Source of the DNA: Bacteriovoracaceae bacterium
Lineage (GTDB): Bacteria > Bdellovibrionota > Bacteriovoracia > Bacteriovoracales > Bacteriovoracaceae
NCBI GenBank assembly: GCA_947446575.1
Contig: CANFHC010000007.1
Location: 65,763 to 129,762 of the forward strand
Length of the DNA stretch: 64,000 nucleotides
Reading direction: 5' to 3'
A model generated the notes under the pieces. That model saw nothing but the letters and a program-made list of their open reading frames with translations. It was not told the DNA's origin and ran no database searches. How positions within the stretch are numbered: position 1 is the stretch's first letter; each line of letters opens with the position of its first letter. Position numbers and translations under genes: made by a program. Of this stretch, positions 3,127 to 23,784 are shown one piece after another.

Positions 3127-3783
3127 ATGATTTTAAAAAGTAAGTACGTATTCGAATCTAAATCAACCAAAATGTATCGGCATCTTCAAGGGGTGCTGAT
3201 TATTCTGGTTTCTATATTTATTACTTATTCATTTGTTTGCTCAATTCTTCTTTTAGATGCTAGAAATGAAACAAAAAACGCCAAGACTACTTTTGTAAAC
3301 TCTCCACCAGATCTTATTGTTGTTTTTACCGGTGGCCCTGGTCGAATTGAATACGCGGTTAAAAAGGCTCAAGAATTTAAGCAACCGAATGTTTTTATCT
3401 CGGGAGTTTATGAAAAAAATTCGGTTAAAACTTTAATTAACCCGATTAATCCAAACTCTACTGAAACTGATCATATTGAAATTGATTATACCGCTAGAAA
3501 TACTGTGGAGAATGTCATCTCTACTTTAAAATACCTTAGAAACAATCGTGGACTTGAAAAAATCCTGATTATCTCAAGTGACTATCACATTATGAGAATT
3601 AAGCAGATTATTAACACTCTTATTCGCGAAGAAGATAAATTTACTTTTTACTTCTCAGCCGTTTCTTCTAATTATTTGCATTTAAAAAATATAAGATTAC
3701 TCTATATCGAAACTTTTAAATTAGTTCGCACTAAAGTCTTCTTAATGTTTTGGGATCAGAAATCACCAATAGATGTTTCGTGA
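3127..3783 (+). CDS. DUF218/YdcF-SanA-family membrane-anchored protein
   Basis: An N-terminal transmembrane helix is followed by a DUF218-like core (LIVVFTGGPGRIEY...ISGV...SSDYHIMR). Confidence 0.6.
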   Translation: MILKSKYVFESKSTKMYRHLQGVLIILVSIFITYSFVCSILLLDARNETKNAKTTFVNSPPDLIVVFTGGPGRIEYAVKKAQEFKQPNVFISGVYEKNSVKTLINPINPNSTETDHIEIDYTARNTVENVISTLKYLRNNRGLEKILIISSDYHIMRIKQIINTLIREEDKFTFYFSAVSSNYLHLKNIRLLYIETFKLVRTKVFLMFWDQKSPIDVS

Positions 3784-8330: not shown

Positions 8331-9482
8331 GTGAATTTTTTAATAAAACTAGAAGATGCCATTAATAGTCTATTAGAAAAACTTTTAGAAAAACTAAAAG
8401 GCTTTACTCCTGCGTTCGTTTTTGAGTTTCTAATACTACTTAAACATCTTCCTTCATTTATAAAAAAGAAAATACAAAGCTACATGCCAAGATTGCGAAT
8501 CATGGGATTAAAATTTGTTGGCTACATTGAGCACTACACGACAATGATTCGTGGAGCCTTGATGAGTGTTATAATGTATCTTCGATCAGAAGAATTTAAA
8601 AAAGCGAATAAAAAAGATTTGCTTCTAGCTCCTCTTCGATTTGCTAAATTTCATCCACTTAAAGCACTCTCTGCTCTTTTTACGTTTTGTATCTTCGCAG
8701 GAGCAGCAGCTATCATCTTTCAAAATACAGAAAAAATTGTTACCGGAACAAGAGCGCTTAGAAAACCTGCTTCAAGTGAGCTGGCTGAAGAAGATAAATT
8801 TATTGAATTAAAAAATCACAAGTTTGAAGTAAAGCTCGGAGGTGGTGGTCATGGCGGTGGACATGGAGCAGCTCCAGCAGAAGAGCATGAGTACGAACTT
8901 TATCTCGACGTAAAAATTGAAGCCCTAAATGAAAGAGAAAAAGAATTTTTAGAACATATGGAAGAAATGTTAGATGATAACCTAGAAGCGTTAGAGCTTC
9001 CAGTTGTTCAGTTGCCGCTTGTTCCTGAAAACCAAAAACTAATTGAAGAGTTCATGGTTAAGTCTTTAAACACAGACTTCAAAGAAATTGGTCATGAAAA
9101 TCCGATTAAAAGTATTCACTTAAAACAAGTTCTCTCTAGCCGTCCAGTTTACTACCGACAAGCAGAAAGAATGATGAAAGTTGAAGATATCAGCTTGCAA
9201 CTTTTCTTAGAAGATACACACAGAAATAGACAGGTATGGATAGATTTTTCTGTCCTTGCTTCAAACCGCAATGTGATCCTCTATTTAAAAGAGCATGAAG
9301 TAGAATTAAAAGATCACCTCTCAACAAATGTAGAACCAGTCATCCCTCAACTTCCAGTGGAAGAAGAAGGACGAATGATTATTAAAGACAAAATGAGATT
9401 AGAAATAGATCAATTCTTAGAAAAAAATAAAATTGAAGGTAAGGTTTTAGAAATTTATCTTGATTACCTCATGGCCTCTTAA
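8331..9482 (+). CDS. Hypothetical membrane-associated protein with a Gly/His-rich stretch (GGGGHGGGHG); GTG start
   Basis: The 383 aa ORF has a hydrophobic helix near residue 100 and an acidic, coiled-coil-like C-terminal half. I recognise no family. Confidence 0.5.
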   Translation: MNFLIKLEDAINSLLEKLLEKLKGFTPAFVFEFLILLKHLPSFIKKKIQSYMPRLRIMGLKFVGYIEHYTTMIRGALMSVIMYLRSEEFKKANKKDLLLAPLRFAKFHPLKALSALFTFCIFAGAAAIIFQNTEKIVTGTRALRKPASSELAEEDKFIELKNHKFEVKLGGGGHGGGHGAAPAEEHEYELYLDVKIEALNEREKEFLEHMEEMLDDNLEALELPVVQLPLVPENQKLIEEFMVKSLNTDFKEIGHENPIKSIHLKQVLSSRPVYYRQAERMMKVEDISLQLFLEDTHRNRQVWIDFSVLASNRNVILYLKEHEVELKDHLSTNVEPVIPQLPVEEEGRMIIKDKMRLEIDQFLEKNKIEGKVLEIYLDYLMAS

Positions 9483-10794
9483 GCACACTGAGTGTTTCTC
9501 GATTTCCCAGCATCGCTTTTAAAGTATTAGGACTGATTTCTAAAAGTTTGGAAGCTCTCGTAATATTTTTATCCGATTTATTAAAAATACTTAGGCAATA
9601 ATCCATTTTAACTTGTTCCAGAGATTTCAATTGGTGATTTTCTAAATTTGTAGCATGCCCCATATCCTCTAATAAAGAATAGTCCGATTTGTCCAAAATT
9701 ATTTTTTTACCACCCGATAAAATTTTTTTCTTCTTTAAATGTGATAGCAGCTGCCTGATATTTCCAGGCCATGAACACTCAGTATAGAACTGTAAAAGCT
9801 CCTCTGAAATCACACAAAAATTATTTTTTTCAAACTCCAAACAAAAATCTCTAATTTTATCAGGTTTATCTCTCAAACTATCTAGACTCACAACAATACC
9901 AGAAGTAAGTCGGTAATAAAAATCTCTGCGCATTTTTTCTTCTGCTATTAGTTTTTTCATTTTTGTACCAGAAGCAAATAGGATACGAACATCTGCCTTC
10001 TGCGCATTACTTCCACCAACTGCGCGCACTTCATGATTATCTAAAAACAAAAGGAGTTTTGTTTGCAGTTCAATGCTTAATGAATCGATCTCATCTAAAA
10101 ACAGAGTTCCTTTATTTGCTTCGAGAATAGCTCCTTTTTTTTCAACAATTGCTCCAGTAAAAGCTCCTTTGACGTGTCCAAATAGTTCCGATTCGATAAG
10201 CCCTGGAGAAAAAGAAGAAAGGTTCAAATGAATAAATTTTCCGATGCGGTTACTTTCTTCATGAATTGCTTTTGCCAACGTGGTTTTCCCAGTACCCGTT
10301 TCTCCTTCGATCATAATATTAAGTGGACTACGGATCATATCAGTGGAGATGAGGTTTTCTTCTGTGCTTAATTTCAAATGAGTATGTGGGCGTAAAAAAT
10401 GAATGCTATTAAATCCAATATCTACAACGTCTCCTCTTTCAATAAAAGCTTCAAAGCTATGCACTCCGTTTAACCTGAAAGGAAATTTCCCTAAACTTCG
10501 AAGTAAAAACCGCGATTTTTCGTCGAAGTCATGAGACGTCGTGTTTTTGATGAGCTGTAATTCATATTCGTGAAACTCTTTATCAAAAACAGGTAAATGA
10601 ATTTCGCCTGTAGTACCATCAAAAGAAAAGCTCAAGGCTGTCCGGATGTGATACTTAAATCGCTTTAGTCGCAAAGTCCGTTTTCTTTCTTGAAAGATAT
10701 CTAGTGTAAATTCATCATCTTCCCGCACTCCTCTTAAACCAATACTGCTCTCCAATGAGTGTGTAATTAAACGATCTAAATTTCTTTCTCCCAT
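9469..10794 (-). CDS. σ54-dependent transcriptional activator (enhancer-binding protein) with an N-terminal FHA-like region and a C-terminal HTH
   Basis: The AAA+ σ54-interaction domain is marked by GETGTGKTTLAKAIH with a Walker A motif and ...ESELFGH..GAFTGA (the GAFTGA motif). The C-terminus carries a Fis-type helix-turn-helix. Confidence 0.85.
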   Translation of the reverse strand: MGERNLDRLITHSLESSIGLRGVREDDEFTLDIFQERKRTLRLKRFKYHIRTALSFSFDGTTGEIHLPVFDKEFHEYELQLIKNTTSHDFDEKSRFLLRSLGKFPFRLNGVHSFEAFIERGDVVDIGFNSIHFLRPHTHLKLSTEENLISTDMIRSPLNIMIEGETGTGKTTLAKAIHEESNRIGKFIHLNLSSFSPGLIESELFGHVKGAFTGAIVEKKGAILEANKGTLFLDEIDSLSIELQTKLLLFLDNHEVRAVGGSNAQKADVRILFASGTKMKKLIAEEKMRRDFYYRLTSGIVVSLDSLRDKPDKIRDFCLEFEKNNFCVISEELLQFYTECSWPGNIRQLLSHLKKKKILSGGKKIILDKSDYSLLEDMGHATNLENHQLKSLEQVKMDYCLSIFNKSDKNITRASKLLEISPNTLKAMLGNRETLSVLKRP

Positions 10795-12089: not shown

Positions 12090-12893
12090 ATGTTTAAAAA
12101 ATTTGAAGAGATAGAAAAGAAATTACAAAATCGCTACAGTGAACAAAGAGATCCTTGGGGACTTGAGCCCAAAAGAGCACTCGCAGATATAAAAGTGCTC
12201 TGGCCATTTTATAAGTACTATTTCGACGTTCAATTGCACGGCAAGGAATATGTGAAGGACCATCCTTACATGGTTGTCTCCAATCATACTGGTCAAATTC
12301 CCATTGACGGGATGCTAATATGCACAGCATTTGCTACAGAGCTAGAATCCCCACGCATTCTGCGCCCGCTAGTTGAAAGATTTTTAACCTCACTTCCCTT
12401 TTTAGGTCGCTGGTCAAGCGAAGGCGGAGCCGTTTTAGGTGACAGACACAATTGCCTCAACCTACTTAAGCGTGGCGAGTCAGTTTTAATTTTTCCTGAA
12501 GGTGTAAAAGGAATCGCGAAAAACACTAAAGATTATTATAAACTACAAAAGTTTACCCGTGGCTTTTTGAGAATGGCGATTGCTAGCGACGCTGAAATTC
12601 TTCCGATTGCAGTGGTGGGAGCTGAAGAATTTTTTCCTTACGTATTACAGATGAAGAAGCTGGCTAAATTTTTAAAAATTCCAGCTCTTCCACTAACAGC
12701 CAATTTATTTCCTCTACCTTCTCCGATTGATATTTATATTGGTGAACCATACTCTTTGCCAAAAGATTTAAGTCCGGAAGCTTTGGATGATGAATTGGAA
12801 TTGCATCTGATTATCATTGAGAAAAAAATTCAAGAGCTCACAGAATTTGGTTTAAAAAATCGCCGGACTATAATGCAGAGATTGAAATCATGA
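12090..12893 (+). CDS. Lysophospholipid/glycerolipid acyltransferase (PlsC/LPLAT family)
   Basis: The HX4D motif (VVSNHTGQIPIDG) and an FPEG motif (IFPEGVKG) are present. Confidence 0.75.
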   Translation: MFKKFEEIEKKLQNRYSEQRDPWGLEPKRALADIKVLWPFYKYYFDVQLHGKEYVKDHPYMVVSNHTGQIPIDGMLICTAFATELESPRILRPLVERFLTSLPFLGRWSSEGGAVLGDRHNCLNLLKRGESVLIFPEGVKGIAKNTKDYYKLQKFTRGFLRMAIASDAEILPIAVVGAEEFFPYVLQMKKLAKFLKIPALPLTANLFPLPSPIDIYIGEPYSLPKDLSPEALDDELELHLIIIEKKIQELTEFGLKNRRTIMQRLKS

Positions 12894-13849
12894 ATGAACG
12901 TACAAAATTAAAATCTGTTTTGATCATTGGTATCCAGGGTGCATTAGCTAAAATCACTGCTGAAATTTTGATAAAAAAACATCCTGAAATAAAAATTCAC
13001 GGAGTTGATTCACGAGAAATTGATCAAGTTCCCAATCGCACTCAACTCACGACTCAACAATTAAAGTACACGCGAACTAATTTTGAAAAAATGTTTCGTG
13101 AACATCACTTCGATACAATTTTGCACTTAGGTCGTTTAGGCCACTCACCTGCATTGGGAAATATTCATAAACGCATCGATATTAATTTAGTAGGAACCAA
13201 TACAATTTTAGAGCTCGCTCATAAATTTAATTGCAAAAAAGTTGTAATCCTCTCTACACATCACGTTTATGGCGCTCACTCTGATAATTCGATGTTTCTA
13301 AAAGAAGATGCTCCCTTGCGCGGAAGTTTTAAATACGCCGAACTTCGTGACGTGGTTGAAATGGATCAAATGTGTACGAACTGGATGTGGAAAAACCAAA
13401 ATCAAATCGATACTGTGGTTCTTCGCCCTTGCAATATCATCGGCCCACAAATAAAAAATTCGATCACCCAGTATTTAAAAACTCCATATGCTCCACTCCC
13501 GATTGACTACAATCCAATGTTTCAATTTGTGCACGAATTTGACATGGCCTCTATCATTGTCGGATCTGCTGAAGCTCTAAAAACCGGCATCTATAACGTG
13601 GCCGGTGACGATGTAATCAGTTTGCATGAAGCGGCCGGCATCATTGGAGTCAGAAAACTCAAAGTTCCCATAATTGTTGTAGAACAACTGGCAAAGATTA
13701 TGACGCCCATTTGGAAATTCCCCCATTACCTCATCGATTACTTAAAATTTCCGTCAACACTCGACAATAGCGAACTAAAGAAAAATCTTGGAGGCGATAT
13801 CTTCAGATTTAGCGCAAAAGAGGCCCTAGAACTCCTTAAATTGCATTGA
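12890..13849 (+). CDS. NAD(P)-dependent epimerase/dehydratase-family (extended SDR) protein
   Basis: The N-terminal Rossmann-like region (VLIIGIQGALAKI...) and the roughly 320 aa length fit the family. It overlaps the acyltransferase gene by 4 bp, consistent with one operon. Confidence 0.55.
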   Translation: MNERTKLKSVLIIGIQGALAKITAEILIKKHPEIKIHGVDSREIDQVPNRTQLTTQQLKYTRTNFEKMFREHHFDTILHLGRLGHSPALGNIHKRIDINLVGTNTILELAHKFNCKKVVILSTHHVYGAHSDNSMFLKEDAPLRGSFKYAELRDVVEMDQMCTNWMWKNQNQIDTVVLRPCNIIGPQIKNSITQYLKTPYAPLPIDYNPMFQFVHEFDMASIIVGSAEALKTGIYNVAGDDVISLHEAAGIIGVRKLKVPIIVVEQLAKIMTPIWKFPHYLIDYLKFPSTLDNSELKKNLGGDIFRFSAKEALELLKLH

Positions 13850-13889
13850 CAAAAAAGGAGCCTCTCTCTTAGTATAAATATCTCACAAT

Positions 13890-13975
13890 GCCTTGGTGGT
13901 GGAATGGTAGACGCAGCGGATTCAAAATCCGCCGTTCGAAAGGATGTGCGAGTTCGAGTCTCGCCCGAGGCACCA
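13890..13975 (+). tRNA. tRNA-Leu (anticodon CAA), type II with a long variable arm, CCA encoded
   Basis: I folded it by hand. The acceptor stem gccttgg pairs with ccgaggc. The anticodon stem gcgga and tccgc flanks the loop tt-CAA-aa. The variable arm is 18 nt, the T arm is gcgag-ttcgagt-ctcgc, and the 3' end is a-CCA. Confidence 0.85.
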
Positions 13976-13995
13976 TCTATACGTATAGTGTAACC
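13966..13995 (+). repeat. att-type direct repeat, copy 1 (3' end of tRNA-Leu plus flank: cgaggcaccatctatacgtatagtgtaacc)
   Basis: About 26 of 30 nt recur at 14137-14167 and 20605-20634. Confidence 0.7.
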
Positions 13996-14112
13996 TAAGC
14001 TAAAATCAATTATAATATTTTGAATCAGGACATATAGATGACAAAGTTTAACGGGCAATGGAATGGGCCTGACGTTTTTACTAGCTGTAATCAAGTTCCA
14101 TGAAAATTGATA

Positions 14113-14167
14113 TCTCAGTTCGATATTCGTCAACTACGGTGCACCATCTATGCGTATAGTGTAAACT
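14113..14167 (+). repeat. Composite att-like repeat: a degenerate tRNA T-arm/acceptor 3'-half copy (tctcagttcgatattcgtcaactacggtgcacca) fused to copy 2 of the tRNA 3'-end repeat
   Basis: The first 34 nt recur nearly identically at 16230-16263 and 21990-22022. The following 31 nt match the tRNA-Leu 3' end and flank. Confidence 0.7.
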
Positions 14168-14300
14168 CCGCTATTACTTCAAATCATGCTTGATCTAAAA
14201 ATATTTAAAGAAATCTCTATTGTGAGTTAACGAAAGATCAATTCTCAACGATTAGTTGAGGCAGGTATTCAATTTAATAATTAAAACTATGCGAACATAA

Positions 14301-14789
14301 TTAAAATTCAACAAACAATCCCTCAACTTGCCCAAGATTGTTTATTCTTACTTTTCTTCCAAGACCACAATCAAGATAATTTTTTTTCAACACAAAGGGC
14401 CGAGATGAATCTATCTCTACTTTCTTAATACAGTTATTTCCCCAATACTTGGAAATTTGATCGATTGAAAAATTCTCTTCATTAGAAAAATTTGGAAAAA
14501 AACTTATCGCTTTTAACTGTTCATCTTTAATACCAATAGACCAACTTTGATGATTAGTATTTTTGTCTTTGTAAATTAAGTATATATGCTTTGATTTGAC
14601 ATCGTTATAAACTTCAGTTGGATTTCCTAGAATTTGAACAATTTTCTCTCTACTCCATTTTTCATTTTGCATACTTAGCAAATATTTCCATTCTCGATCA
14701 ACATTATCAGTTAAATTTTCATTTTTGGTCACAAGAGAACAAGAAAGAGTTGTGAGCAAGAAACCGATTAAATAGAACTTTTTTTTCAT
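14301..14789 (-). CDS. Lipoprotein, copy 1 (intact), partner of the upstream HExxH protein; candidate cognate inhibitor or immunity protein
   Basis: The lipobox is TLSC|S. It has conserved W...SIGI...FFPN.SN...YWGNNC...LDCG.GRKV..NNL motifs shared with 18510..19031 and the 16329..16808 pseudogene. Its ATGA start overlaps the upstream gene by 4 bp. Confidence 0.6.
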   Translation of the reverse strand: MKKKFYLIGFLLTTLSCSLVTKNENLTDNVDREWKYLLSMQNEKWSREKIVQILGNPTEVYNDVKSKHIYLIYKDKNTNHQSWSIGIKDEQLKAISFFPNFSNEENFSIDQISKYWGNNCIKKVEIDSSRPFVLKKNYLDCGLGRKVRINNLGQVEGLFVEF

Positions 14790-15496
14790 CTTATAATTCC
14801 TAAAAGCGAACGGAGATAATTCATAATTTCTTTATCAATGACTTTGGAATGATTTTTATCACTAATTAAATGTTCTACATTGTTTGCAAAATCTTCTTCG
14901 GGACTTAATTTACCATCAGGTTCAGAAAATTGCGTTCGAGGTGTGTGGAAAACATCTTTTTCAATTTCATTCCACTTTGAAATAGATCGGTAATCTTCTT
15001 TTTCATTTTTATCCAGATGTGAATAAAGAACATGGGCCATCTCATGAGCAAGAGCTCTCTTCAGTCCAAATTTAAATACACTGTCGTATAACACAATTAT
15101 TGAATCATCTGGACCTGACGAAGAATGGTTGTCTGGGAAAGCTGACTTCACTGCCCTAAAAATTCTTATTTCACCAAGATCTTTTAATGTTTTTGGAAGT
15201 GAATTAATTGCGCTCTCAATTTCTTTTTTTTCGTTTTCAGATGAGGACTTAAAAATTTCTAATTGAAAAGGCCATCCCCTTGGCATTGTATCTTTAAAAA
15301 CTAATTTGAGTGGATTAAAAAAATGATTAGTTCGGCAATGAGCTGAGACAGTTGTTTCTTTTACGAATGTGCCATCAGTTCTGTAGTAAGCATTGCGCTT
15401 ATAAGTATTTACAAAATACTGCCCGCTTGGACACTTTGAAGTTTCAGCACTCGAAATCTGAGCAAACAATATAAAAAATAAAAAAATGAACTTCAT
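14786..15496 (-). CDS. Secreted HExxH-motif putative zinc metallopeptidase, copy 1 (intact)
   Basis: It has a signal peptide and a conserved CP.GQ...C pair. The HExxH motif is ALAHEMAHVLY, and a conserved SPEEDFANNVEH lies about 45 aa downstream, a gluzincin-like spacing. It has two paralogues in the island. Confidence 0.6.
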   Translation of the reverse strand: MKFIFLFFILFAQISSAETSKCPSGQYFVNTYKRNAYYRTDGTFVKETTVSAHCRTNHFFNPLKLVFKDTMPRGWPFQLEIFKSSSENEKKEIESAINSLPKTLKDLGEIRIFRAVKSAFPDNHSSSGPDDSIIVLYDSVFKFGLKRALAHEMAHVLYSHLDKNEKEDYRSISKWNEIEKDVFHTPRTQFSEPDGKLSPEEDFANNVEHLISDKNHSKVIDKEIMNYLRSLLGIIR

Positions 15497-15626
15497 AATA
15501 TGATCATATAATTTTATACAGTTACGTCAACTGCTAATTCAAATTTGAAATAATCTATCATTTTCTTATCAAATTTATTTTTTTAATCTTCATCTCTCCT
15601 TATAAGTAAAATTTAAGGAGATTCAA

Positions 15627-16154
15627 ATGACAAAAATAGAAAATGAAATTTTCAAAATTAAAAATATGATTTACTTAATAAGAGATCATAAGGTAATGCT
15701 TGATAGCGACCTAGCTCTGCTTTATGGAGTCGAAACGAAAGTTCTTAATCAGCAGGTCAAAAGGAATTTAAAAAGATTTCCTCCCGATTTTATGTTTCAA
15801 CTCACAAGTGAAGAATTCAATATTTTAAAATCTCAAATTGCGTCTTCAAAATTTGGCAGCGGAGGAAAACAAAAACTCCCATTAGTCTTTACTGAAAATG
15901 GAGTAGCGATGTTATCTGGTATTCTTAACTCTGATCGAGCCATCAATGTAAATATCAGTATTATGAGAATTTTTACAAAGCTCCGAAGCTTTCATGCACT
16001 AGAAACTAACTTGTCTGGAGAAGTAAAAGAGTTAAAAGAAAATTCAAACAAACTATTCAAAGCCATTTTTGAAAGACTAGATTCTATAGAAGATGATCTA
16101 ATTCCCAAACTTCCTAACCAACGAAAAAAAATTGGTATTAACGCTAATGAATAA
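15627..16154 (+). CDS. ORF6N-domain protein (KilA-N/antirepressor-like DNA-binding domain family)
   Basis: The N-terminus (KVMLDSDLALLYGVETKVLNQQVKRNLKRFPPDFMFQLT) matches the ORF6N domain pattern. Its C-terminal half is duplicated at 21714..21959. Confidence 0.65.
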   Translation: MTKIENEIFKIKNMIYLIRDHKVMLDSDLALLYGVETKVLNQQVKRNLKRFPPDFMFQLTSEEFNILKSQIASSKFGSGGKQKLPLVFTENGVAMLSGILNSDRAINVNISIMRIFTKLRSFHALETNLSGEVKELKENSNKLFKAIFERLDSIEDDLIPKLPNQRKKIGINANE

Positions 16155-16202
16155 GTTTGAAGTCACAACTCATGTCCCTAAGTGTCTAAAACAATGAGCT
16201 TT

Positions 16203-16227
16203 TTGAAGTCACAAATTGTGACTTCAA
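16203..16227 (+). terminator. Perfect palindrome ttgaagtcaca-aat-tgtgacttcaa immediately downstream of the ORF6N gene, followed by att-like repeat A2
   Basis: It is an 11-bp inverted repeat. An analogous, sequence-unrelated palindrome (aaggttccaa-at-ttggaacctt) at 21965-21987 precedes repeat A3. Confidence 0.4.
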
Positions 16228-16229
16228 AA

Positions 16230-16263
16230 TCTCAGTTCGATATTCGTCAACTCCGGTGCACCA
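16230..16263 (+). repeat. att-like repeat A2 (tctcagttcgatattcgtcaactccggtgcacca)
   Basis: 33 of 34 nt are identical to 14113-14146. Confidence 0.7.
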
Positions 16264-16328
16264 AATATTTTAACTAACTAATTTCTTAAGTTTTCTAAAA
16301 AATACCACCGAAGGTATGCGAACCAGAA

Positions 16329-16808
16329 CTAATTCTTAAGAAGTAGATATTGAATTTCTTTTTTATTAAAATAGTAAACTTTTATCTTATTAGTACATTC
16401 AAACCAAAATTTATTTTCAATAAAATCTGGATGGACAACTTGTCCTTTAGAATCAGTACAGTTAAAATTTTTCCAGTGACTTTTTATCCCATCATAAGAA
16501 AATTCATTTAAGTCTTTCTCTTGTGGGATGAAGGAAAAGCTATTTACCTGATGATTTCCCTTATACATGATTGCAAAAGTTTGAAGTTGTGAATCTTGAT
16601 TCACTTAAATATTGGCACCATCACTTAATTGCTTTTTTGGTTTCCCCAAATTAAGTTCAATTTGTTCTCTTGTTAATTGATTAGAAATAATGCCATTAAT
16701 AATATCCCAAGAAGTGAGAGCTTTCATTGGTTTTTGCAAAGGCTTGGTGCCAGTAGTGCAAGAAAATATAAATAGAATTAATAAGAAAAGGCTATTTTTA
16801 TTTGTCAT
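16329..16808 (-). pseudogene. Lipoprotein, copy 2, interrupted by an in-frame TAA (16605-16607) directly followed by GTG
   Basis: The 67 aa piece (lipobox IFSC|T) and the 91 aa piece are contiguous in one frame. Their combined length and conserved Cys and Trp pattern match the intact copies. Confidence 0.55.
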
Positions 16809-16872
16809 TTTTTATCCCCAAAATATTTTTCAAACAATTTTCTATTGCTGGAGAGATCTTTTGTTTGTAATT

Positions 16873-17500
16873 TTAATTTGTTATTAAATGCTCTACATTG
16901 TTCGCAAAATCTTCTTCTGGACTTAAACGTCCATCTTCTTCAGATATAACTGCTCTTTGATTAATTACTTCACCTTTTGTATTTAACGCCCAATCGGCAT
17001 CGGAGAAATATTTTTCTTTATTACTTCGATCCAAATTTTTCCATAAAATATGTGACAGTTCATGCACGAGTACTTTTTTAAGGCCGTAAGACTCAGCCTT
17101 ATCATAGACTGTAATAATATTTTCTTCAGCAGCGGTAGTTGCTCCATTCTCTGGCCATTTTGACTGACTAGCTCTAAAGATTTTTAACTCTCCAATTTGC
17201 GTCAGAACGTTAGGGAGCGATTTTAAAATTAACTTTAATTCCTTTTTGTCTTTTGCAGTCCAGCGTTTAAATTTTTCTGTTTTGTTGGGCCAATTTAATG
17301 GCATTTCATTTTTAGGTGTCACCTTTGAAAGTATAGGGTCTCCAGGATTCTTTAACATTAGCAGCACTTACATATTTACCATCTTGTCGTGTGTAATCAC
17401 TTCTGTAGTGAGAAATGACACTGAATGCTCCATCAGGACATTCCTCAGCTAAAACTTTCCCACAAAGCACAAAAAATATTAAAAATATGATCAATCTCAT
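16873..17500 (-). pseudogene. HExxH putative metallopeptidase, copy 2, with a single-base frameshift near 17340-17365
   Basis: The N-terminal 62 aa fragment (signal peptide plus ECPDGAF...) and the 164 aa fragment (…VHELSHILW…SPEEDFANNVEHLI) align to copy 1 in two different frames. Confidence 0.55.
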
Positions 17501-17513
17501 CGTTTTTCTATTC

Positions 17514-17762
17514 TTAATTTACAAGTTTCCAAATTCTTTTTAAATCTTCGACCAAAAGCTCACTTAAAAAAGTAGTCATTGGTTTACTTGATCTCTTCGC
17601 TAATTCTTTAGCTATTTTTAAAATATCAGGAGTTAGTCTCATATTAACTTGCTCTGATTTTATCATCGGAACTTTCCTTTTCTTGGAAGCTTTTTCCATA
17701 ATTTCTTCAAAGTCATTTTTTGTTAAGTCATTTACAGATATTACTTTTTTATTTTTCTTCAT
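17514..17762 (-). CDS. Ribbon-helix-helix/BrnA-like antitoxin
   Basis: The 82 aa product reads ...VNMRLTPDILKIAKELAKRSSKPMTTFLSELLVEDLKR, an RHH-like pattern resembling the BrnA family. The upstream partner is degenerate. Confidence 0.4.
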   Translation of the reverse strand: MKKNKKVISVNDLTKNDFEEIMEKASKKRKVPMIKSEQVNMRLTPDILKIAKELAKRSSKPMTTFLSELLVEDLKRIWKLVN

Positions 17763-17866
17763 TTTTATTTCCTATTTTTTTGCCTTTTTAATTCTAAATG
17801 CATTAATAACACCAATTATCTCCAGATGATTTCCTTCAAAAAGCCATATTAAGCGATAGTATTTAT
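17759..17866 (-). pseudogene. Short ORF (MKKKNKYYRLIWLFEGNHLEIIGVINAFRIKKAKK*) resembling only the C-terminal end of BrnT/DUF497 toxins; truncated toxin remnant
   Basis: It is immediately upstream of, and overlapping, the BrnA-like gene. Its ...IIGVINAFRIKK ending resembles the ...IRIISARKATKKE ending of BrnT. The N-terminal two thirds are missing. Confidence 0.3.
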
Positions 17867-18178
17867 TTTTTTTTCTTCATTTTGTAATTGAATGTCTGAT
17901 ACATAGTATTCAGTGCCTTTTGAGGTCGAGTCTGCTGAGAAGGTTTTTTCATCAAGAGCTAAAATGAGTTGTAAAATGATCACATCGTTAATAGATTCAG
18001 CATGATTTTCTTTGTAATGTTGGCCTATAATCACTCCAGTGATTATATGATCATTTACAGTAATTGGCGCTTTTAAGATAATTAATGCAGATTTTTTCAT
18101 GCTATACATATCATAGCATAAGTACTTATAAATGTATATGTTTGCAGATAAATTGCTATACGCTAAAGTGTTAAACAA
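17849..18178 (-). CDS. Hypothetical ORF (109 aa), possibly non-coding or the frame-shifted N-terminal part of the BrnT-like remnant
   Basis: It is ORF-only evidence in an AT-rich region with no recognisable motif. Confidence 0.2.
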   Translation of the reverse strand: MFNTLAYSNLSANIYIYKYLCYDMYSMKKSALIILKAPITVNDHIITGVIIGQHYKENHAESINDVIILQLILALDEKTFSADSTSKGTEYYVSDIQLQNEEKKINTIA

Positions 18179-18258
18179 TTACTGAATAAATTCAACTTGT
18201 TGGTAATAGTCTGCAGAAACATTTGGAGTTCTTGAAATCTCTTTGAATTTCAAAAATT

Positions 18259-18444
18259 CTAAAGCAGAGTAATACCTTTTTTCTTAATCTTCTGAAAATA
18301 ATTCTGGATGGCGTTTTCAGTCCTTCCGTAATGTTCAGATAATTGTTTCCGAGACCATCCATCTATAAAGCGTAACTTTGCCAACTCACGCAAATCGACT
18401 CTTGGTTCTTGCCACTCAATCAGGTGTGATAAATCAACCGACAA
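18259..18444 (-). CDS. Small helix-turn-helix protein (61 aa), with a truncated second copy at 20406..20597
   Basis: ...LRELAKLRFIDGWSRKQLSEHYGRTENAIQNYFQKIKKKG is HTH-like, possibly a remnant of a transposase or σ-region-4-type DNA-binding domain. Confidence 0.4.
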   Translation of the reverse strand: MSVDLSHLIEWQEPRVDLRELAKLRFIDGWSRKQLSEHYGRTENAIQNYFQKIKKKGITLL

Positions 18445-18509
18445 TAGTGGTTCGTCGATCTTTGCATGGCAGGCACCAATTGGAAGACTAGACGAACCAT
18501 TTAATTTAC

Positions 18510-19031
18510 TTAAAAAACCAATAACAATGAAGAAATTTCCTTTAGATTGTTGAGATAAACTTTTCTTCCCTCACCGCAATCCAAAAAATAAATATTATCA
18601 ATAAAATCTTTATTGTTAATCTGTTCCTTCTTTTCAAGACAAGAATTTCCCCAGTAATTTATTGTATTTTCTTTTTTAAATAAATCTCGATTTGAAATAT
18701 TTGGAAAAAATGTAACAGCGAAAATTTTACCATCAGAAGAAACACCTATGGACCATTTTTGAATATCCAAATTCTTATCTAGATAAATCCAATACTCTTT
18801 ATTCTTTTTTCCTTCACGTAAAATAGAATTAGGAGGACCAAAAACGGCAGTTATTTTTTCACTATTCCAATTTTCATGCTTAATCTTGTTCAGCAACTCC
18901 CATTCATTTTCTTGCTTATTTATTTTATCTGAAACGTGTGGGTGTGTTGTGCAGCCTAAAATGACAAGTAAGAAAATAATGTTTTTAAAAAGTGATATCA
19001 TTTTTTTATACCTAAAATATTTTTTATGCAT
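18510..19031 (-). CDS. Lipoprotein, copy 3 (intact), paralogue of 14301..14789
   Basis: The lipobox is ILGC|T. The conserved motifs W.IYLDKN...WSIGVS...FFPNISN...YWGNSC...LDCGEGRKVYLNNL are present. Confidence 0.6.
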   Translation of the reverse strand: MHKKYFRYKKMISLFKNIIFLLVILGCTTHPHVSDKINKQENEWELLNKIKHENWNSEKITAVFGPPNSILREGKKNKEYWIYLDKNLDIQKWSIGVSSDGKIFAVTFFPNISNRDLFKKENTINYWGNSCLEKKEQINNKDFIDNIYFLDCGEGRKVYLNNLKEISSLLLVF

Positions 19032-19712
19032 TTTTCAATACTGCTACTGATTGCACTGTTATGTTTTTTATCAATCAAAATATGCTCAACATTATTCGCA
19101 AAATCTTCTTCGGGACCTAGTATTCCATCAGTTTCAGAAAATTTTTTTCGAGTTGTTTTAAAATTACTAGACTCTTGTCCCAACCAATCTGCTGCTTTGT
19201 AATAGCTTTTTCGCTCATCATCCGACAGTTTCTTTAAATAACAAATGGGCCATTTCATGAGCTAGGATTCTTTTATAACCAAATGTCTGTGCGTTATCAT
19301 AAAAAACAATGATTGATTCATCGGGCGCTGCCGTTGATGGATTATCTGGAAAAGCTGATCTAATAGCTCTGAGTAGAGTTATTTCTCCCTGATCTCTTAA
19401 CATTTTTGGAAGTTTTGCAATTTCTTTTTCTAATGATTTTTTCTCTCTTGGACTCCACGCTTTAAAAAGTTCTAGTTGATTAGGCCAACCTTCTGGCATG
19501 CTCGAAAGATATTTCAAAATAAGAGGTTTAGAGAAAGTAGATACTTTGCAATACGCTTCAACGTTAGATGAATTTACAAAAGTACCGTTCGTGCGATAAT
19601 AAGAAGTTCGAGGATGCGCATTTACAAGAAATTGCCCCTCCGGGCATTCAAGGGCAAAGACCGAATGAGATAAAAGACTGATAATAGTAATAAAAAAGTA
19701 TCTATTCATCAA
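18998..19712 (-). pseudogene. HExxH putative metallopeptidase, copy 3, with a single-base frameshift inside 'ttgttatttaaagaaactg' at about 19225-19245
   Basis: The 164 aa N-terminal ORF (signal peptide, ECPEGQ, ...AHEMAHLLF) and the 86 aa C-terminal ORF (...GPEEDFANNVEHILI...) are adjacent collinear frames of the copy-1 protein. Confidence 0.55.
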
Positions 19713-19818
19713 AAAATTTTAATTTACCTCTAGATGCAAGTCAACGAAACTGAGGCTTTCAACCAAGTACAATACTCTATAGCTTTGACAAAATGTTCGG
19801 AATAGCGTACATTGACGT

Positions 19819-20109
19819 ATGGTTGTTTTTTAAAAATTTAAAGAATATTCAGATTGGTATGAAGAACAAACGGCCAAAATAAGGGCACAAATTGATGGCC
19901 GACTTGAGAAAATTCGCGACTTCGGCCATTACGGACATGTGAAGAAACTAAGTTCCGTTTTATATGAAATTAAATTTAACAATGGAAATCGAATTTATTA
20001 CACAGAGAGGATGATCAACGGAGAAGTATTGATTTTAATCCAAGGAGGAAATAAAAATGGACAAGACAAAGATATCAAAAAAGCCCAAAAAGCAGCCGAA
20101 AAAATCCAT
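19819..20109 (+). pseudogene. HigB-like 'addiction-module killer' (RelE/ParE-superfamily) gene with TAA at codon 5 (19831-19833)
   Basis: ATG GTT GTT TTT TAA is followed in frame by KFKEYSDWYEEQTAKIRAQIDGRLEKIRDFGHYGHVKKLSSVLYEIKFNNGNRIYYTERMINGEVLILIQGGNKNGQDKDIKKAQKAAEKI. This matches the conserved GDVK.VG.G..ELRI..G.GYRVYF....II.LL.GGDK..QDKDI.KAK pattern of HigB-type killer proteins. Confidence 0.6.
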
Positions 20110-20386
20110 GATGATTAATGGAATAGAACTTTTCAATCACGATCCATCCCTAATCTTTAAGAATCATAAAGAAATTAAGCTAGCACTCTTTGAGGCGTTG
20201 TTTGATGGAGACAAGGAAGCTTTTGTTGATATTTTATCAGGCTATGTGCGCGCACATAATATTTTAGAGGTTTGCCAGCGAACGGGTTTAAGCCGTACCG
20301 TAGTTTATGAGGCCATCAGTGATAATGGCAACCCATCGCTGGATACATTGTGTAAGATAATGACTTCGTTTAAAAAAGTGGCGTAA
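20057..20386 (+). CDS. HigA-like addiction-module antidote (HTH DNA-binding) protein
   Basis: The 109 aa gene overlaps the killer gene 3' end in the +1 frame. The C-terminal HTH reads ...VCQRTGLSRTVVYEAISDNGNPSLDTLCKIM. Confidence 0.6.
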   Translation: MDKTKISKKPKKQPKKSMMINGIELFNHDPSLIFKNHKEIKLALFEALFDGDKEAFVDILSGYVRAHNILEVCQRTGLSRTVVYEAISDNGNPSLDTLCKIMTSFKKVA

Positions 20387-20405
20387 ACACATTCACAATT
20401 AAAGC

Positions 20406-20597
20406 TCAAAAACCTTTCTTTTTAATATTTTGAAAATAATTTTGAATGGCCATCTCTGTCCACCCATAATGTTCTGCTAATCGTTGCCTCGACCATCCAT
20501 CAATAAAGCGTAGTTTTGCCATCTCCGCTAGATTCACTCTCAACTCGCGCCACTGGATCGTGTAAAGTGTCCCTGTCGTCAGTGGTTCTTCTACCTT
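20406..20597 (-). pseudogene. Degenerate second copy of the small HTH ORF (no proper start; MAKLRFIDGWSRQRLAEHYGWTEMAIQNYFQNIKKKGF*)
   Basis: It is about 70% nucleotide similarity to 18290-18430. An upstream in-frame TAG and the absence of ATG leave a 38 aa Met-initiated remnant. Confidence 0.4.
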
Positions 20598-20604
20598 ATT
20601 GCGA

Positions 20605-20634
20605 CGGGCACCATCTATACGACTAGTGCAAACT
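20605..20634 (+). repeat. att-type direct repeat, copy 3 (cgggcaccatctatacgactagtgcaaact)
   Basis: It matches the tRNA-Leu 3' end and flank (gcaccatctatacg.a.tagtg.aa) at 13966-13995 and 14137-14167. Confidence 0.65.
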
Positions 20635-20680
20635 AAATTGATTAATCTTCTTCTAACCTAAACATTTTTATCAATTTTTT

Positions 20681-21604
20681 TTAATGTCGTTTTAAAGCAG
20701 CATCTAGATAACTCTTAGCCACAAAAGGATTGGACAAAAAATTATTCATTTTTAAAATTTGTTCAGAGGAATAAAAGCTAGATTTATAGAACTTAGCATA
20801 TGACTCAATTAACCAGTAAGTGGCATCTGACGTACTAATTCTTAACTCCGCTGCAGGGTAAGACATAATTACATCATATACAGAATTGGCTATATTTTTT
20901 GTCTTAAAGTTAGCTACAAGATAAGAGGCATATCTCTTAATTCTTTCATCTTTTGATTTTAGTGCCTCAATTACTAAAGGTTCTAAAGACGATAACTGTT
21001 TTTTAGACATTACGACTGAGCCATTAGAATATGTAATTTTATCTTGCTTAAAGTTTGAACCTAATGCTTCATAAAATCTTTTATCTTTTCCAAATCCTAG
21101 GTCGTTTGCCATGATTGTAAAAGGACGATCTGGTTCATCGGTATTTGAAGAGAACAGTTCAACATTTCCAGAAAGTGGTGAAAAGTCATAATAAAAAAAC
21201 ATTGAAGATTTTAATTGTAATTTTTCGGAATCAAATTCACGAATCCCTCTATTCGTAGAAACGAAAATATTTCCTGAATTAGAATTTTTAACAAAATCAT
21301 TTACGAGAAGAGATTCAACTCCCTGTCCACCATATGAAAGTAGTAACTTGTGAGAGTTTTTATCATAGACTTGAAAACCATCTCCTCTCCAATCATATTC
21401 GCCACCAGAGCCAAATGCGATCCAGATCTGATTATCAAATTCTTTTACAGTAACAATTAAGCAGCCATACTCAGGACAGAGGTTAATTATCTGAAGTTTA
21501 AACTTATCGTTCTTTATTTTTATAAAAATTTCTTTGCAAAATGATCCTCCCTCTTGACTCTGATCTAAGTTTTGACATTTTAAATACTCAACATTGATAT
21601 GCAT
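20681..21604 (-). CDS. Hypothetical protein; the ORF track extends it to 21769 (362 aa), but the upstream part overlaps the ORF6N fragment, and the internal Met at 21604 (307 aa) is more likely
   Basis: It is a long open frame with no signal peptide and no family recognised by eye. Confidence 0.4.
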   Translation of the reverse strand: MHINVEYLKCQNLDQSQEGGSFCKEIFIKIKNDKFKLQIINLCPEYGCLIVTVKEFDNQIWIAFGSGGEYDWRGDGFQVYDKNSHKLLLSYGGQGVESLLVNDFVKNSNSGNIFVSTNRGIREFDSEKLQLKSSMFFYYDFSPLSGNVELFSSNTDEPDRPFTIMANDLGFGKDKRFYEALGSNFKQDKITYSNGSVVMSKKQLSSLEPLVIEALKSKDERIKRYASYLVANFKTKNIANSVYDVIMSYPAAELRISTSDATYWLIESYAKFYKSSFYSSEQILKMNNFLSNPFVAKSYLDAALKRH

Positions 21605-21713
21605 TTTATCATTTATCAGAAACTCATTAACTACCCCGTTTGCAGGTAGACCTCTTCTAGATTCAAGTCTAGGGTTAATGATTGATCCTGCTTTTAGCGA
21701 GAAAGATGTTGAA

Positions 21714-21959
21714 ATGCTATCAAGTGTTTTATCAAGTGACCGTGCTGTTGAAATTAATATCTCAATCATGAGAATTTTTACAAAACTTAGAAGTTTTCAT
21801 GCACTTGAAAGTAATTTAGCCACAGAACTCCAAAATTTTAAGGATAATGTAAATGGTCTATTTAAAGTTGTTTTTACTAGATTGGATGGCATTGAAGATG
21901 ATCTAACACCAAAACTTTCAGAGCAGCGAAAAAAAATTGGAATCAAGGTTGAATCTTAA
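21714..21959 (+). pseudogene. Truncated duplicate of the ORF6N-protein C-terminal half (N-terminal DNA-binding domain missing)
   Basis: MLSSVLSSDRAVEINISIMRIFTKLRSFHALESNLATELQNFKDNVNGLFKVVFTRLDGIEDDLTPKLSEQRKKIGIKVES is about 70% identical to residues 95-175 of 15627..16154. Confidence 0.5.
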
Positions 21960-21989
21960 AGATTAAGGTTCCAAATTGGAACCTTAATA

Positions 21990-22022
21990 GCTCAGTTCGA
22001 AGATCGTCAACTCCGGTGCACT
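21990..22022 (+). repeat. att-like repeat A3 (gctcagttcgaagatcgtcaactccggtgcac), the probable distal boundary of the island
   Basis: About 29 of 33 nt are identical to A1 and A2, and a palindrome precedes it at 21965-21987. Confidence 0.6.
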
Positions 22023-22059
22023 ATCTTATATTATTTGTATCTAGATTCCTAAAAAATAT

Positions 22060-23784
22060 TCAAACGTCGATAAATCGATGATCCTCACTTGCTGGTAAAT
22101 TAATCTTATTCGTTTTATCTTGCTTCAAGCTAATTGGTAAAGTCGGTTTTGTTTTTGTTATAACACTTTTAACTATTTTTTCATTGTTAATATATGCTGC
22201 TTTCTTTGTATTATCTTTGTTGCCGCCCTCTATAGTTTTAGTCAAATCGAAGATTAGTTCTTTTAGTAAATGCGCTTCTTGAGATAATGCTCCTGCCGCA
22301 TTAGAAGATTCAGTTGCATTGGCAGTATTTTGTTGAGTTACCTGATCGAGTTGAGCAATGGCTTTGGTAATTTCTTGCATTCCCTGAGATTGCTCCTGGC
22401 TTGCACTTGAAATTTCAGTAATTGAATTAGATACACTTGCCACCGATTTAACGATTTCACTCAAGACCTCACCAGATTCATTGGCAACTCTAATACCTGC
22501 TTCAACGTTTAGTTTTCCATCTGCGATTAATTTCCCAACTTTATCTTGAGAATTTTTAGCTATTTCTTCTACTCTTTGAACGCTACTTTCTAGCATTGTT
22601 GTTATTTCGACAGCAGCGTTACCACTCATTGATGCCAAATTCCCAATCTCTTCAGCTACAACTGCAAATCCTTTTCCATGTTCTCCAGCTCTGGCTGCTT
22701 CTACAGATGCATTGAAAGAAAGCAGCTTGGTTTGAAATACAATGTCATTGATAACTTTAGTCTTAATACCAATTTCACCAATGACCTTAATAATATTCTC
22801 CATCTCTTGGTTGTTATGATTAACCTGGCCCATAATGCTATCGTTACTTGCATTAATAGCACCAATGGATTTAATCATATTGTTTACGATAACTTTTCCT
22901 TTTTCTGCAATATCTAAACTTTTTTGAGAGTTAACAGTTGATTGCTTGGCATTTGCAGAGTTTGAACTAATCATTGAACTTATTTCTTCAACAGATGAAG
23001 ATGTTTCTTGTAATGAGGACGCTTGTTCAATACTAGCTTGAGATAGTTCTTCAGAAGCAGAGGCGATTTGGGTAGCGGTACTGCTGACTTGGGAACTTGA
23101 TCTTTCAAGTTCTGTTGATATATGTGTAATAGAATTTACAGCTGACGAAATAGTTTTCCAAAGGAGAATGAAACCTATAAATATAGATGCCCCCAGGCCC
23201 AAACTTACCCAAAGATATGTCGTCTTGGCGGCAGCTTCACTTTTTGCCATTCGTTCAATATTTAATTTGTCTTCCATTTGAGTGGCATCATAAATAATCT
23301 TTCGAAAGCCATCCATCGAAACTTTCCCTAGACCTTTTTTTAAAATAGTTTGAAACTCATCAATAGATATTTTTTTAGCATCTAAATCCATTCTTGCTTT
23401 CATCTCAGTGGATTCAGCAATTTCGAGCCATTGATTTTTTATATTACCAGCTTCTGTCAATCGCTTCGTTTGAGTAGGATTATCACTAACAGTTACTTTT
23501 AGTTTTTCAAGTGCGGGATCAAACTTCTCCTTTGCTCCAATAAATGGCTCTAGAAACTTTTTATCTCCACTCATTAAATAACCACGTTCTCCAGTTTCCA
23601 TATCGATCAACATGCTCTGAAGCTCTTTAAAAGATGCAATTGCATCGTCTGTATGTTTCACCCAACCAAATGTAGACACCATATTTGAAACATTGAAATA
23701 TATGACAAGAGCAACTGTCACCGAAAGTAGCGCGGACAGCAGAGCAGATAAGATAATTTTTGCTTTTAAAGATAATGTATTCAT
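22060..23784 (-). CDS. Methyl-accepting chemotaxis protein
   Basis: An N-terminal transmembrane helix precedes a periplasmic ligand-binding region, a second transmembrane helix, a HAMP domain and the conserved MCP signalling domain (...[19 protein letters not shown]...). Confidence 0.85.

Follow-up and report, generated by a model that had tools for sequence, protein, structure and literature searches.

How could an island whose junctions repeat the end of a tRNA gene, and which encodes no intact integrase, have been assembled at that gene? The question is raised by positions 13976–22023 of a 64-kb window (the whole stretch of DNA analyzed, 64,000 nt in length) from a predatory Bacteriovorax genome, where a hypervariable composite island, low in guanine and cytosine (GC), adjoins the gene for tRNA-Leu(CAA). 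We consider, at a probability of roughly 75%, that this region consists of at least five decayed non-autonomous elements (S0 to S4) arrayed in tandem, which accreted at the tRNA 3′ end via a large serine recombinase (LSR) whose gene is no longer part of the island. The original prediction had already proposed a composite island at this tRNA, built by several insertions and now decaying, and both the insertion polymorphism seen in relatives and the broken cargo genes bear this out. It had cast the events in the scheme of tyrosine integrases, with attL in the tRNA and displaced tRNA 3′ ends downstream; the LSRs present at this tRNA and the LSR-type architecture of the junctions point to a different class of enzyme.

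The tRNA gene, the only one identified by ARAGORN in the window and the only match of an Rfam E-value scan over 13500–22500, stands intact at one end of the island, as in a tRNA-gene island in the sense of Islander:

13890–13975, plus strand: tRNA-Leu(CAA) (ARAGORN; Rfam RF00005, 52 bits), attB-type left half-site

A displaced true tRNA 3′ fragment, another mark of such islands, is missing at the far end, where 21990–22023 shares just GCAC(T)A with the tRNA. GC content amounts to 30–32% at 14–19 kb, 32–36% in the remaining island and ~36% in the surroundings. The window contains no GC-skew switch and is thus not located at the replication terminus.

Two repeats recur across the island at the positions given in the original prediction, and neither is attributable to chance (0 matches expected for each in 100 shuffles). 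Element B (GCACCATCTATACGTATAGTGTAA, 24 bp) occurs at 13970, 14141 and 20608 with 0, 1 and 3 mismatches, respectively, and element A at 14116, 16233 and 21993 with 1, 0 and 3 mismatches; no further copy of either was found elsewhere in the 64-kb window. Alignment revealed pairwise identities of 97, 85 and 82% among the 34-bp A copies and of 87, 83 and 77% among the 30-bp B copies. At 16233 and 21993, A forms part of a bigger repeated module that consists of the 3′ end of an ORF6N gene, a perfect 25-bp palindrome and A itself.

For comparison, one genome per species was scanned with the epimerase encoded upstream of the tRNA, yielding 39 related loci, mostly from metagenome-assembled genomes of Bacteriovorax and other Bacteriovoracaceae (loci and contigs are given below as L numbers, LSR proteins as P numbers). 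In the window, two types of element arm stand to the left of a shared GC dinucleotide: the P_A arm, which is the A element (GTTCG-ATATTCGTCAACTCCGGT-GC), and the P_H arm beside a helix-turn-helix (HTH) open reading frame (ORF; GTTCG-TCGATCTTTGCATGGCAG-GC). To the right follows the 3′ end of an LSR gene (P′), the flank that starts with B (B-flank) or another flank. Rather than the four junctions counted previously, six (J0–J5) were found plus a likely degenerate seventh, J3 having been overlooked. GCACCA is common to all of them, with the J5 copy reading GCACTA:

13970, plus strand: J0, tRNA / B-flank
14113–14166, plus strand: J1, P_A arm (A element, GTTC at N18) / B-flank, with B starting at 14141
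14233–14297, plus strand: candidate decayed P_H/P′ junction, GGCAGGtattCAATT...CTATGCGAAC, from sequence comparison
16230–16263 (P_A arm), plus strand: J2 (16258), P_A / AATATTTTAACTAA, the same flank type as after P_A in L003
18446–18502, plus strand: J3 (18473), P_H / P′_LSR with both arms, GGTTC-N18-GC-N19-GAACC
20581–20631, plus strand: J4 (20608), P_H / B-flank
21990–22023, plus strand: J5 (22018), last P_A / ATCTTATATT, right end of the array

Past J5, the sequence resembles the flank that follows the last P_A in three relatives (L003, L019 and L015). At ~14233–14297, a seventh, degenerate junction is likely, its assignment being tentative: CTATGCGAACATAATTAAAATTCAACAAAC is fused to the 3′ end of the S1 lipoprotein gene, which matches a compact P′-cargo junction as in L024 and L058, and an apparent decayed P_H arm precedes this fusion.

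The spacing within the left arms is what sets element arms apart from the tRNA. In the tRNA, the T-loop GTTCG lies 13 nt ahead of the GC in ..GAG-GC-ACCA, and in all five element arms of the window GTTC stands at N18; the same division into N13 (tRNAs scanned) and N18 (P arms) holds in 30-odd arms of relatives. Accordingly, when A is aligned to the tRNA 3′ end, the distance from GTTCGA to GCACCA is greater in A by exactly 5 bases. Among the sites of serine integrases, attB is known to be ~10 bp shorter than attP and to have its zinc-ribbon-domain motif 5 bp nearer the center (Rutherford et al. 2013, PMC3783163), and the left arms in the window show this displacement of the distal motif. As the 5 additional bases match the attP/attB rule, A is best read as an attP-type LSR half-site that mimics the tRNA at a 5-bp offset, and not as the diverged tRNA copy for which it had been taken. 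We also considered A as the 3′ half of another tRNA and rejected this, since T-stem pairing is absent and the 5 bases are in excess.

On the right side, sites of the LSR type carry GAAC 19 nt past the GC at the LSR gene end (GC-ACCAATTGTCAAGCTATT-CGAAC). A full attP thus reads GTTCN-N18-GC-N18-CGAAC and spans 48–50 bp with dyad symmetry. Such a ~50-bp site, symmetric around the central dinucleotide, is present at J3 as well as in L045, L007 and L015; the L045 copy (GTTCT-N18-GC-N18-CGAAC) is intact and lies inside an LSR ORF. Complete elements in relatives display the junction types in full. A clean 9.7-kb island at tRNA-Leu(TAA) (L046) has an attL composed of the tRNA (N13) and P′ (N18) and an attR composed of P (N18) and the flank, and L042, where a tandem of two intact LSR elements occupies tRNA-Leu(CAA), shows the junction types B/P′, P/P′ and P/B′. 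In L042, the tRNA and both P arms have CC as their central dinucleotide, as opposed to GC at all other loci; this is a single covarying case.

Genes for the corresponding enzymes, with Resolvase and Recombinase domains (plus a zinc ribbon in some), are absent from the window but intact at the same tRNA in L013, L016 and L042, and with L013 and the L042 tandem autonomous relatives thus occupy the very site. In L013 (574 aa) and L016 (539 aa), the LSR gene is the first after the tRNA, on the opposite strand, and its 3′ end reads into the tRNA; the tRNA 3′ end, read from that opposite strand, encodes the C-termini ..GAPGQTRTGT (L013) and ..WCLGRDSNSH (L016). Pfam detected Resolvase and Recombinase in both proteins and the zinc ribbon additionally in that of L013. 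The last 30–80 codons of the L013-type gene remain after the tRNA in four relatives (L010, L012, L018, L023) and after A in another two (L007, L015). The family is large (>1000 database homologs at E ≤ 1e-30), and by genomic context its members sit at tRNA-Leu(CAA) (L042), tRNA-Leu(GAG) (L043) and tRNA-Leu(TAA) (L046). Pattern matching on the C-terminal tails of the best 120 of these >1000 homologs showed 97 to end, past the conserved motif GSxSLTxGA, in apparently tRNA-encoded residues (PGRT-stop, QDWT-stop, TRTRT...).

That the island is without an integrase, as previously stated, holds for intact genes, yet LSR remnants survive at 18259–18520 and, as a second tail, at 20409–20607. The former contains the following feature:

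18262–18519, minus strand: vestigial LSR 3′ end, 86 stop-free codons running through J3 into the HTH tail

It is colinear with residues 547–617 of the 636-aa LSR P0060 (BLASTP, 40% identity, E 8e-15) and, judged by this similarity, is an LSR gene 3′ end that has lost the ~540 codons before it. The P′ arm encodes GSxSLTxGA, in which GGTTCG specifies Gly-Ser. Five homologs are in the attP state (P0014, P0060, P0105, P0088 and the 614-aa LSR2 of L042): their frame continues across the crossover, with Glu-Pro or Glu-Leu (encoded by GAACC, the P-arm motif) exactly six residues past GA, and in 4/5 proceeds into a 60–90-residue HTH tail homologous to the HTH ORFs of the window. At attR sites (window 20608, L046, L044), the frame of the tail is unchanged relative to the GC, while an enzyme joined to the P_A arm would end in GAPELTNIELRF followed by a stop. 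The ORFs at 18259–18520 and 20409–20607 are tail ORFs stranded in the window, and examples of the free-state ORF are found in L045 (P0014) and L042 (5595–7439). In this family, attP lies inside the LSR ORF, integrated-state proteins terminate in residues encoded by the tRNA, and integration would therefore swap the HTH tail for these residues. An antisense ORF of 131 aa (13738–14133, minus strand) crosses the tRNA and J1; it is an artifact of the open frame used by LSR genes across such sites and no gene.

Several further observations concern this recombinase family. Upstream of four divergent LSR genes (L042, L044, L045, L046), a small ORF of 64–65 aa without a Pfam match on record is conserved; it ends 8 nt inside the LSR start and is a candidate accessory or directionality factor. 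LSR P0001 (L044) adjoins a partial, ARAGORN-negative tRNA-Leu-like sequence (3324–3410 of the reverse complement) that is degenerate in its 5′ part but conserved from the anticodon arm onward; surrounded by acetyltransferase, methyltransferase and hydrolase genes, this sequence may serve as a secondary site or be an extended mimic of the tRNA that the element carries. The free-state LSR P0014 resides on a 31-kb contig (L045) that also encodes TrbC and a TrbE/VirB4-like ATPase and has a weak match to Replic_Relax (20841–21983, 8780–9613), from which it follows that at least some full-size family members are conjugative elements.

The comparison with relatives revealed insertion polymorphism and not the same fixed content. 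Synteny of the epimerase and tRNA-Leu(CAA) is kept in ~35/39 loci. Nearly every relative has its own content past the tRNA, in which modules of the window reappear in different combinations, and the distance between the tRNA and truA ranges from 3.1 to 10.6 kb (10.6 kb in the window); the locus is an insertion hotspot without fixed content. Lipoprotein/HExxH pairs like those in the island follow the tRNA in L010, L022 and L024, ORF6N genes in L005, L006, L007, L009, L022 and L023, and HTH ORFs in L012, L022 and L024. A lies downstream of the tRNA, in constant orientation, in L003 (two copies), L005, L007, L015 (two), L019, L020 (two) and L022. A search of 241 million metagenome records returned nine contigs with A, two of them with tRNA-Leu upstream of the match and three with cassette genes of the window, the others being short.

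Individual arrangements break at the junctions. The metagenome contig L051, from a close relative, is 100% identical to 16104–16263, the identity ending precisely where GCACCA of J2 ends; there, 32 unrelated bp and a P_H/P′ junction follow, and then 90% identity to 18446–19282 (S3). As S2 is missing from this contig and the left breakpoint falls exactly on a junction, we count it, like the arrangements described next, as indirect evidence that the units move. In L058 and L059, a 2.1-kb LSR-less module of the same unit type as S3 (P′ remnant, lipoprotein, HExxH protein, toxin/antitoxin, P_H) sits at tRNA-Leu(GAG), flanked by attL- and attR-type sites. L047 carries a different 1-kb cassette after the tRNA, but the 58 bp with the A+B junction (14110–14167) are 100% identical to the window, compared to 75% DNA identity in the epimerase–tRNA region. 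In L055, the S3 toxin/antitoxin genes are joined to a terminator and A+B rather than to the HTH tail. Independent assemblies identical to the window (L001, L056, L057) end exactly at the tRNA 3′ end (13975) and in the P_H arm of J3, where they overlap by 30 bp (18438–18467). This suggests branches of the assembly graph at the junctions, due to strain variants or to a second copy of the arm, and hence a further context of the P_H arm in those samples. Exact look-ups of the window proteins revealed no alternative arrangement, returning window-identical or short contigs.

Two further findings at these loci stand apart. In two species, an ISL3-family transposase gene (DDE_Tnp_ISL3, 9e-54) lies beside LSR remnants, a few hundred bp to ~1.2 kb past the tRNA:

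L018, 11482–12672: ISL3 transposase
L012, 12247–12708: ISL3 transposase

In L035, from a Bacteriovoracaceae metagenome-assembled genome, the tRNA-Leu 3′ end is duplicated, to all appearances exactly, at 12309, 1.2 kb downstream of the tRNA. With GTTC at N13, the duplicate is a true displaced tRNA fragment in the classical sense, unlike the arms in the window.

We envisage the following course of events. The LSR would cleave at or beside the GC at tRNA positions 71–72, and the element would supply ACCA and thereby regenerate the tRNA. Newcomers would insert proximal to the tRNA and leave P/P′ junctions between neighbors. Two types of unit would be involved: an LSR-type unit, composed of (LSR)–lipoprotein–HExxH–toxin/antitoxin–HTH tail–P_H and represented by S2 and S3, and a 'B...A' cassette, composed of a B-flank, one to three genes, optionally ORF6N plus hairpin, and then P_A (S0, S1 and S4). 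S1 would be a hybrid, with a lipoprotein–HExxH core bearing a decayed LSR-type P′ arm and present ends of the B...A type. Since J3, an attP-like site between two tandem LSR-type elements, falls in the frame of an LSR 3′ end, we read S2 and S3 together as the decayed form of a tandem such as that in L042. Units without an LSR could move solely if an LSR elsewhere acts in trans and would otherwise decay in place.

B had been regarded as duplicated chromosomal flank. A serine recombinase duplicates only the crossover dinucleotide, yet there are three B-flanks, which is why B is assigned to the elements as their left end. Indeed, it always stands at the left end of a P_A-terminated cassette, for example in the window (S0, S1, S4), in a GNAT cassette of L003, in L019 and in L047. 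We considered the B-flank as the ancestral chromosomal flank (B′) and rejected this: integration duplicates nothing of the target flank, and B occurs three times at cassette left ends. The A+B composite at 14113–14166 has the form to be expected of attP in a circularized 'B...A' cassette.

Several points weigh against the proposed LSR-driven accretion. No LSR gene exists in the 64-kb window, where tblastn with both LSR types matched just the tRNA-encoded tail; the array may be dead, with trans-mobilization depending on an LSR elsewhere. Canonical LSRs recombine attP with attB alone, and insertion beside an occupied tRNA, which is attL-like, requires relaxed site choice; relaxed site selectivity has been described for the Ccr recombinases of the staphylococcal cassette chromosome mec (SCCmec). 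The architecture scan by itself is weak (seven matches in the window vs. a shuffle mean of 2.0 and maximum of 6), and the site architecture draws its weight from clustering, strand, homology and the relatives. The center of symmetry is a palindromic GC, which leaves the exact crossover within GCACCA ambiguous; in characterized serine integrases, a non-palindromic central dinucleotide sets the orientation. Lastly, the spacing from the B-flank to its GTAAC/GCAAAC motif varies (18–20 nt), and we infer B to be an LSR half-site from its position at cassette left ends alone.

How do other explanations fare against the same data? That the repeats are displaced tRNA 3′ fragments of a classical tyrosine-integrase array, whose integrases were deleted later, would accord with the usage of tRNA genes by 44.5% of tyrosine-integrase but 4.9% of serine-integrase elements (PMC7192596), with the resemblance of the repeats to the tRNA 3′ end and with the identity of B running past CCA like a long tyrosine-type core. 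By eye, a 329-aa ORF of L014 (254–1243 nt after the tRNA, minus strand) even shows an R...HxxR...Y-like pattern, but it has no Pfam match at E ≤ 0.01. A crude HxxR...Y search over 117 ORFs that lie past the tRNA in related genomes singled out five candidates, and neither these, L014 included, nor the island ORFs of at least 50 aa contain a tyrosine integrase detectable with Pfam. The recombinases that do adjoin the tRNA in relatives are LSRs, the 5 additional bases in A would destroy a T-arm, arms of different types share just GCACCA and J3 lies within an LSR reading frame. We consider this scenario very unlikely. Only marginally more credit is due to local segmental duplication or unequal crossing-over of one module without site-specific recombination. 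The lipoprotein/HExxH pairs of S1–S3 are indeed spaced by ~2.0–2.2 kb at 66–79% DNA identity, and the two HTH tails are 74% identical; in other species, however, the junction motifs bound unrelated cargo (genes for GNAT, kinase and esterase-like proteins as well as for toxin/antitoxin), other genomes have single modules at this tRNA and at tRNA-Leu(GAG), and arms of two different types alternate. Moreover, junctions are far better kept than their surroundings, as in the 58 bp of L047, and the S3 counterpart in L051 (90%) and the pair in L024 (74% amino-acid identity to that of S1) suggest closer copies in other genomes. Some duplication on top of integration may have taken place.

Least probable of all, and to our mind hardly tenable, are dispersed repetitive extragenic palindromic (REP)-like or Xer/dif-like repeats unrelated to the tRNA. 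B does contain a 12-bp palindrome (CTATACGTATAG), GGTGCACC in A is palindromic and GGTGC...TATA recalls dif loosely, by eye. Against this stand the absence of A and B from the rest of the window, the position of A in the 39 loci, always downstream of the tRNA and in the same orientation, and its rarity in metagenomes, where the matches with readable context lie at tRNA-Leu or among cassette genes. The REP-like family that could have refuted the island is thus not borne out, and the reading of GGTGCACC...TATA as an Xer/dif site of an integrative mobile element exploiting Xer (IMEX) was rejected, given the lack of a skew switch and the ties of the copies to tRNA-Leu.

Within the array as interpreted here, i.e. 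LSR-type accretion, the segments and their cargo are as follows:

13976–14140, plus strand: S0, gutted 'B...A' cassette with B-flank at 13976–13993 (blastn and translation against L019)
14038–14103, plus strand: S0 remnant ORF, 21 codons, MTKF/NGQWNGPDVFTSCNQVP and stop
14301–14789, minus strand: S1 lipoprotein, intact pair member
14786–15496, minus strand: S1 secreted HExxH protein, intact pair member
15627–16154, plus strand: S1 ORF6N-domain (anti-repressor-like) gene, Pfam PF10543 (2.4e-32) and PHROG anti-repressor, right end of S1
16203–16227, plus strand: perfect 25-bp palindrome before J2
16264–18445, minus strand: S2, segment between J2 and J3
16329–16808, minus strand: S2 broken lipoprotein gene
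16873–17500, minus strand: S2 broken HExxH gene
17514–17762, minus strand: S2 p82
17849–18178, minus strand: S2 p109
18259–18444, minus strand: S2 HTH tail ORF
18503–20580, minus strand: S3, segment between J3 and J4
18510–19031, minus strand: S3 lipoprotein gene
18998–19712, minus strand: S3 broken HExxH gene
19939–20118, plus strand: S3 truncated RelE/ParE toxin
20057–20386, plus strand: S3 HI1420 antitoxin
~20409 (stop), frame through J4 to ~20607, minus strand: S3 HTH tail lacking a start codon, a probable pseudogene
20632–21989: S4, segment between J4 and J5
20681–21769, minus strand: S4 p362
~21690–21959, plus strand: S4 ORF6N C-terminal fragment
21963–21987: S4 perfect palindrome
22060–23784, minus strand: CHASE3 methyl-accepting chemotaxis protein, first gene beyond the junction array

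Much of the cargo is pseudogenized, as previously noted, and a few of its ORFs are orphans. Of three paralogous minus-strand lipoprotein/HExxH pairs, the first is intact and the other two are broken, and truncation has affected an ORF6N gene, the RelE-type toxin and one HTH tail. The 140-bp stretch that had been described as an empty scar is a cassette in its own right: S0 derives from a 131-codon lipoprotein gene, intact in L019, that lost codons 5 to ~113 in frame. A scan of the island ORFs found S0–S4, flanked by the att sites J0–J5, to be free of recombinase and transfer genes, in keeping with non-autonomous elements. Lipoprotein/HExxH pairs are recurrent island cargo at tRNA-Leu(CAA) and tRNA-Leu(GAG) hotspots (L010, L022, L024, L058), and the family is known solely from Bacteriovorax-type genomes. 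The HExxH protein falls into 48 database clusters, none functionally named, and those with a taxonomic name belong to Bacteriovorax or Bacteriovoracaceae; it has no match in Pfam, NCBIfam or the PDB. Neither did Pfam, NCBIfam and PHROGs suggest a function for the lipoprotein, p82, p109 or p362. The chemotaxis receptor gene (22060–23784) is not kept at this position in other species, and the hypervariable zone may extend past J5, to truA at 24571.

Whenever an ORF6N gene precedes P_A, the 25-bp palindrome sits 7 nt 5′ of the GTTCGA of that arm (window; L007, L050, L051). Its two copies in the window differ at four compensated pairs, reading TTGAAGTCACA.AAT.TGTGACTTCAA at 16203 and TTAAGGTTCCA.AAT.TGGAACCTTAA at 21963, from which we conclude that the structure, and not the sequence, is conserved. 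Lacking a U-tract, the palindrome may not be a simple terminator.

To which known systems does such an array compare? Closest are the SCCmec/SCC composite islands of staphylococci with their pseudo-SCC elements, which are likewise LSR-driven (Ccr), consist of tandem elements with recombinase-less members, target the 3′ end of one conserved gene and have junctions marked by a short repeat of the site, as at tRNA-Leu here. Many SCC members have no recombinase of their own and are presumably mobilized in trans. The target, however, is tRNA-Leu instead of rlmH, the LSR family belongs to a Bdellovibrionota host and carries attP in its own ORF, the whole array of the window is without a recombinase and cassettes can be as small as one gene. 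Cis-mobilizable elements (CIMEs) of Streptococcus and other bacteria lack integration and transfer genes, keep their att sites and accumulate at tRNA 3′ ends as newcomers integrate site-specifically (PMC5704250); tRNA-linked CIME accretions (e.g. at tRNA-Lys) involve tyrosine integrases and longer identical cores (PMC5704250), in contrast to the 6-nt core and the LSR sites with 5-bp offset found here. Integron cassettes, too, comprise one to three promoter-poor genes with a conserved site and are stacked at one locus, but the island has no IntI tyrosine recombinase, attI or attC-type hairpin (attC models were not run), its sites being LSR half-sites.

At the level of the enzyme, the phage serine integrases of A118/LI, Bxb1 and phiC31 act on 40–50-bp sites with dyad symmetry and an attB motif 5 bp closer to the center (PMC3783163), as observed here; they target protein-coding or intergenic sites with non-palindromic dinucleotides, as opposed to a tRNA with a palindromic GC. 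Tyrosine integrases of the 'suicidal' type in archaeal spindle-shaped viruses (SSV) are the nearest precedent for the tail swap: they resemble this LSR family in having att inside the integrase gene, so that the gene product is altered by integration (PMC8371274), but there the recombinase is split and inactivated, whereas the serine recombinase here would only swap its last 70–90 residues (the HTH tail) for a few encoded by the tRNA. In 2015, serine integrases were described as not known to use tRNA genes (PMC4383910); in 2020, a computationally determined share of 4.9% was called previously unreported (PMC7192596). From these comparisons, the pattern of decay and accretion in the window appears to be of a known type, with the tRNA target, the enzyme family and the attP within an ORF as distinguishing features.

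A broader scenario is conceivable, which we put forward tentatively and do not favor over its negation: a large Bdellovibrionota clade of LSRs may have specialized on tRNA-Leu, with attP in the coding sequence and the tail swap as a switch between integration and excision, and may service in trans LSR-less 'B...A' and 'P′...P_H' mini-cassettes that pile up at tRNA-Leu genes. This would constitute an integron-like cassette system, of which the window would be an array without the enzyme.

For the family, our findings mean that a populous group of LSRs (>1000 homologs) uses tRNA genes, although integration into tRNAs is seen as a hallmark of tyrosine integrases. The att sites, as read from sequence, fit the serine-integrase rule and provide attP/attB pairs for enzymes that target the tRNA-Leu 3′ end, a sequence conserved in many bacteria. 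Tools that seek a displaced tRNA fragment along with a tyrosine integrase would miss islands of this kind. For the predators themselves, tRNA-Leu genes emerge as hotspots for lineage-specific secreted proteins and toxin–antitoxin modules.

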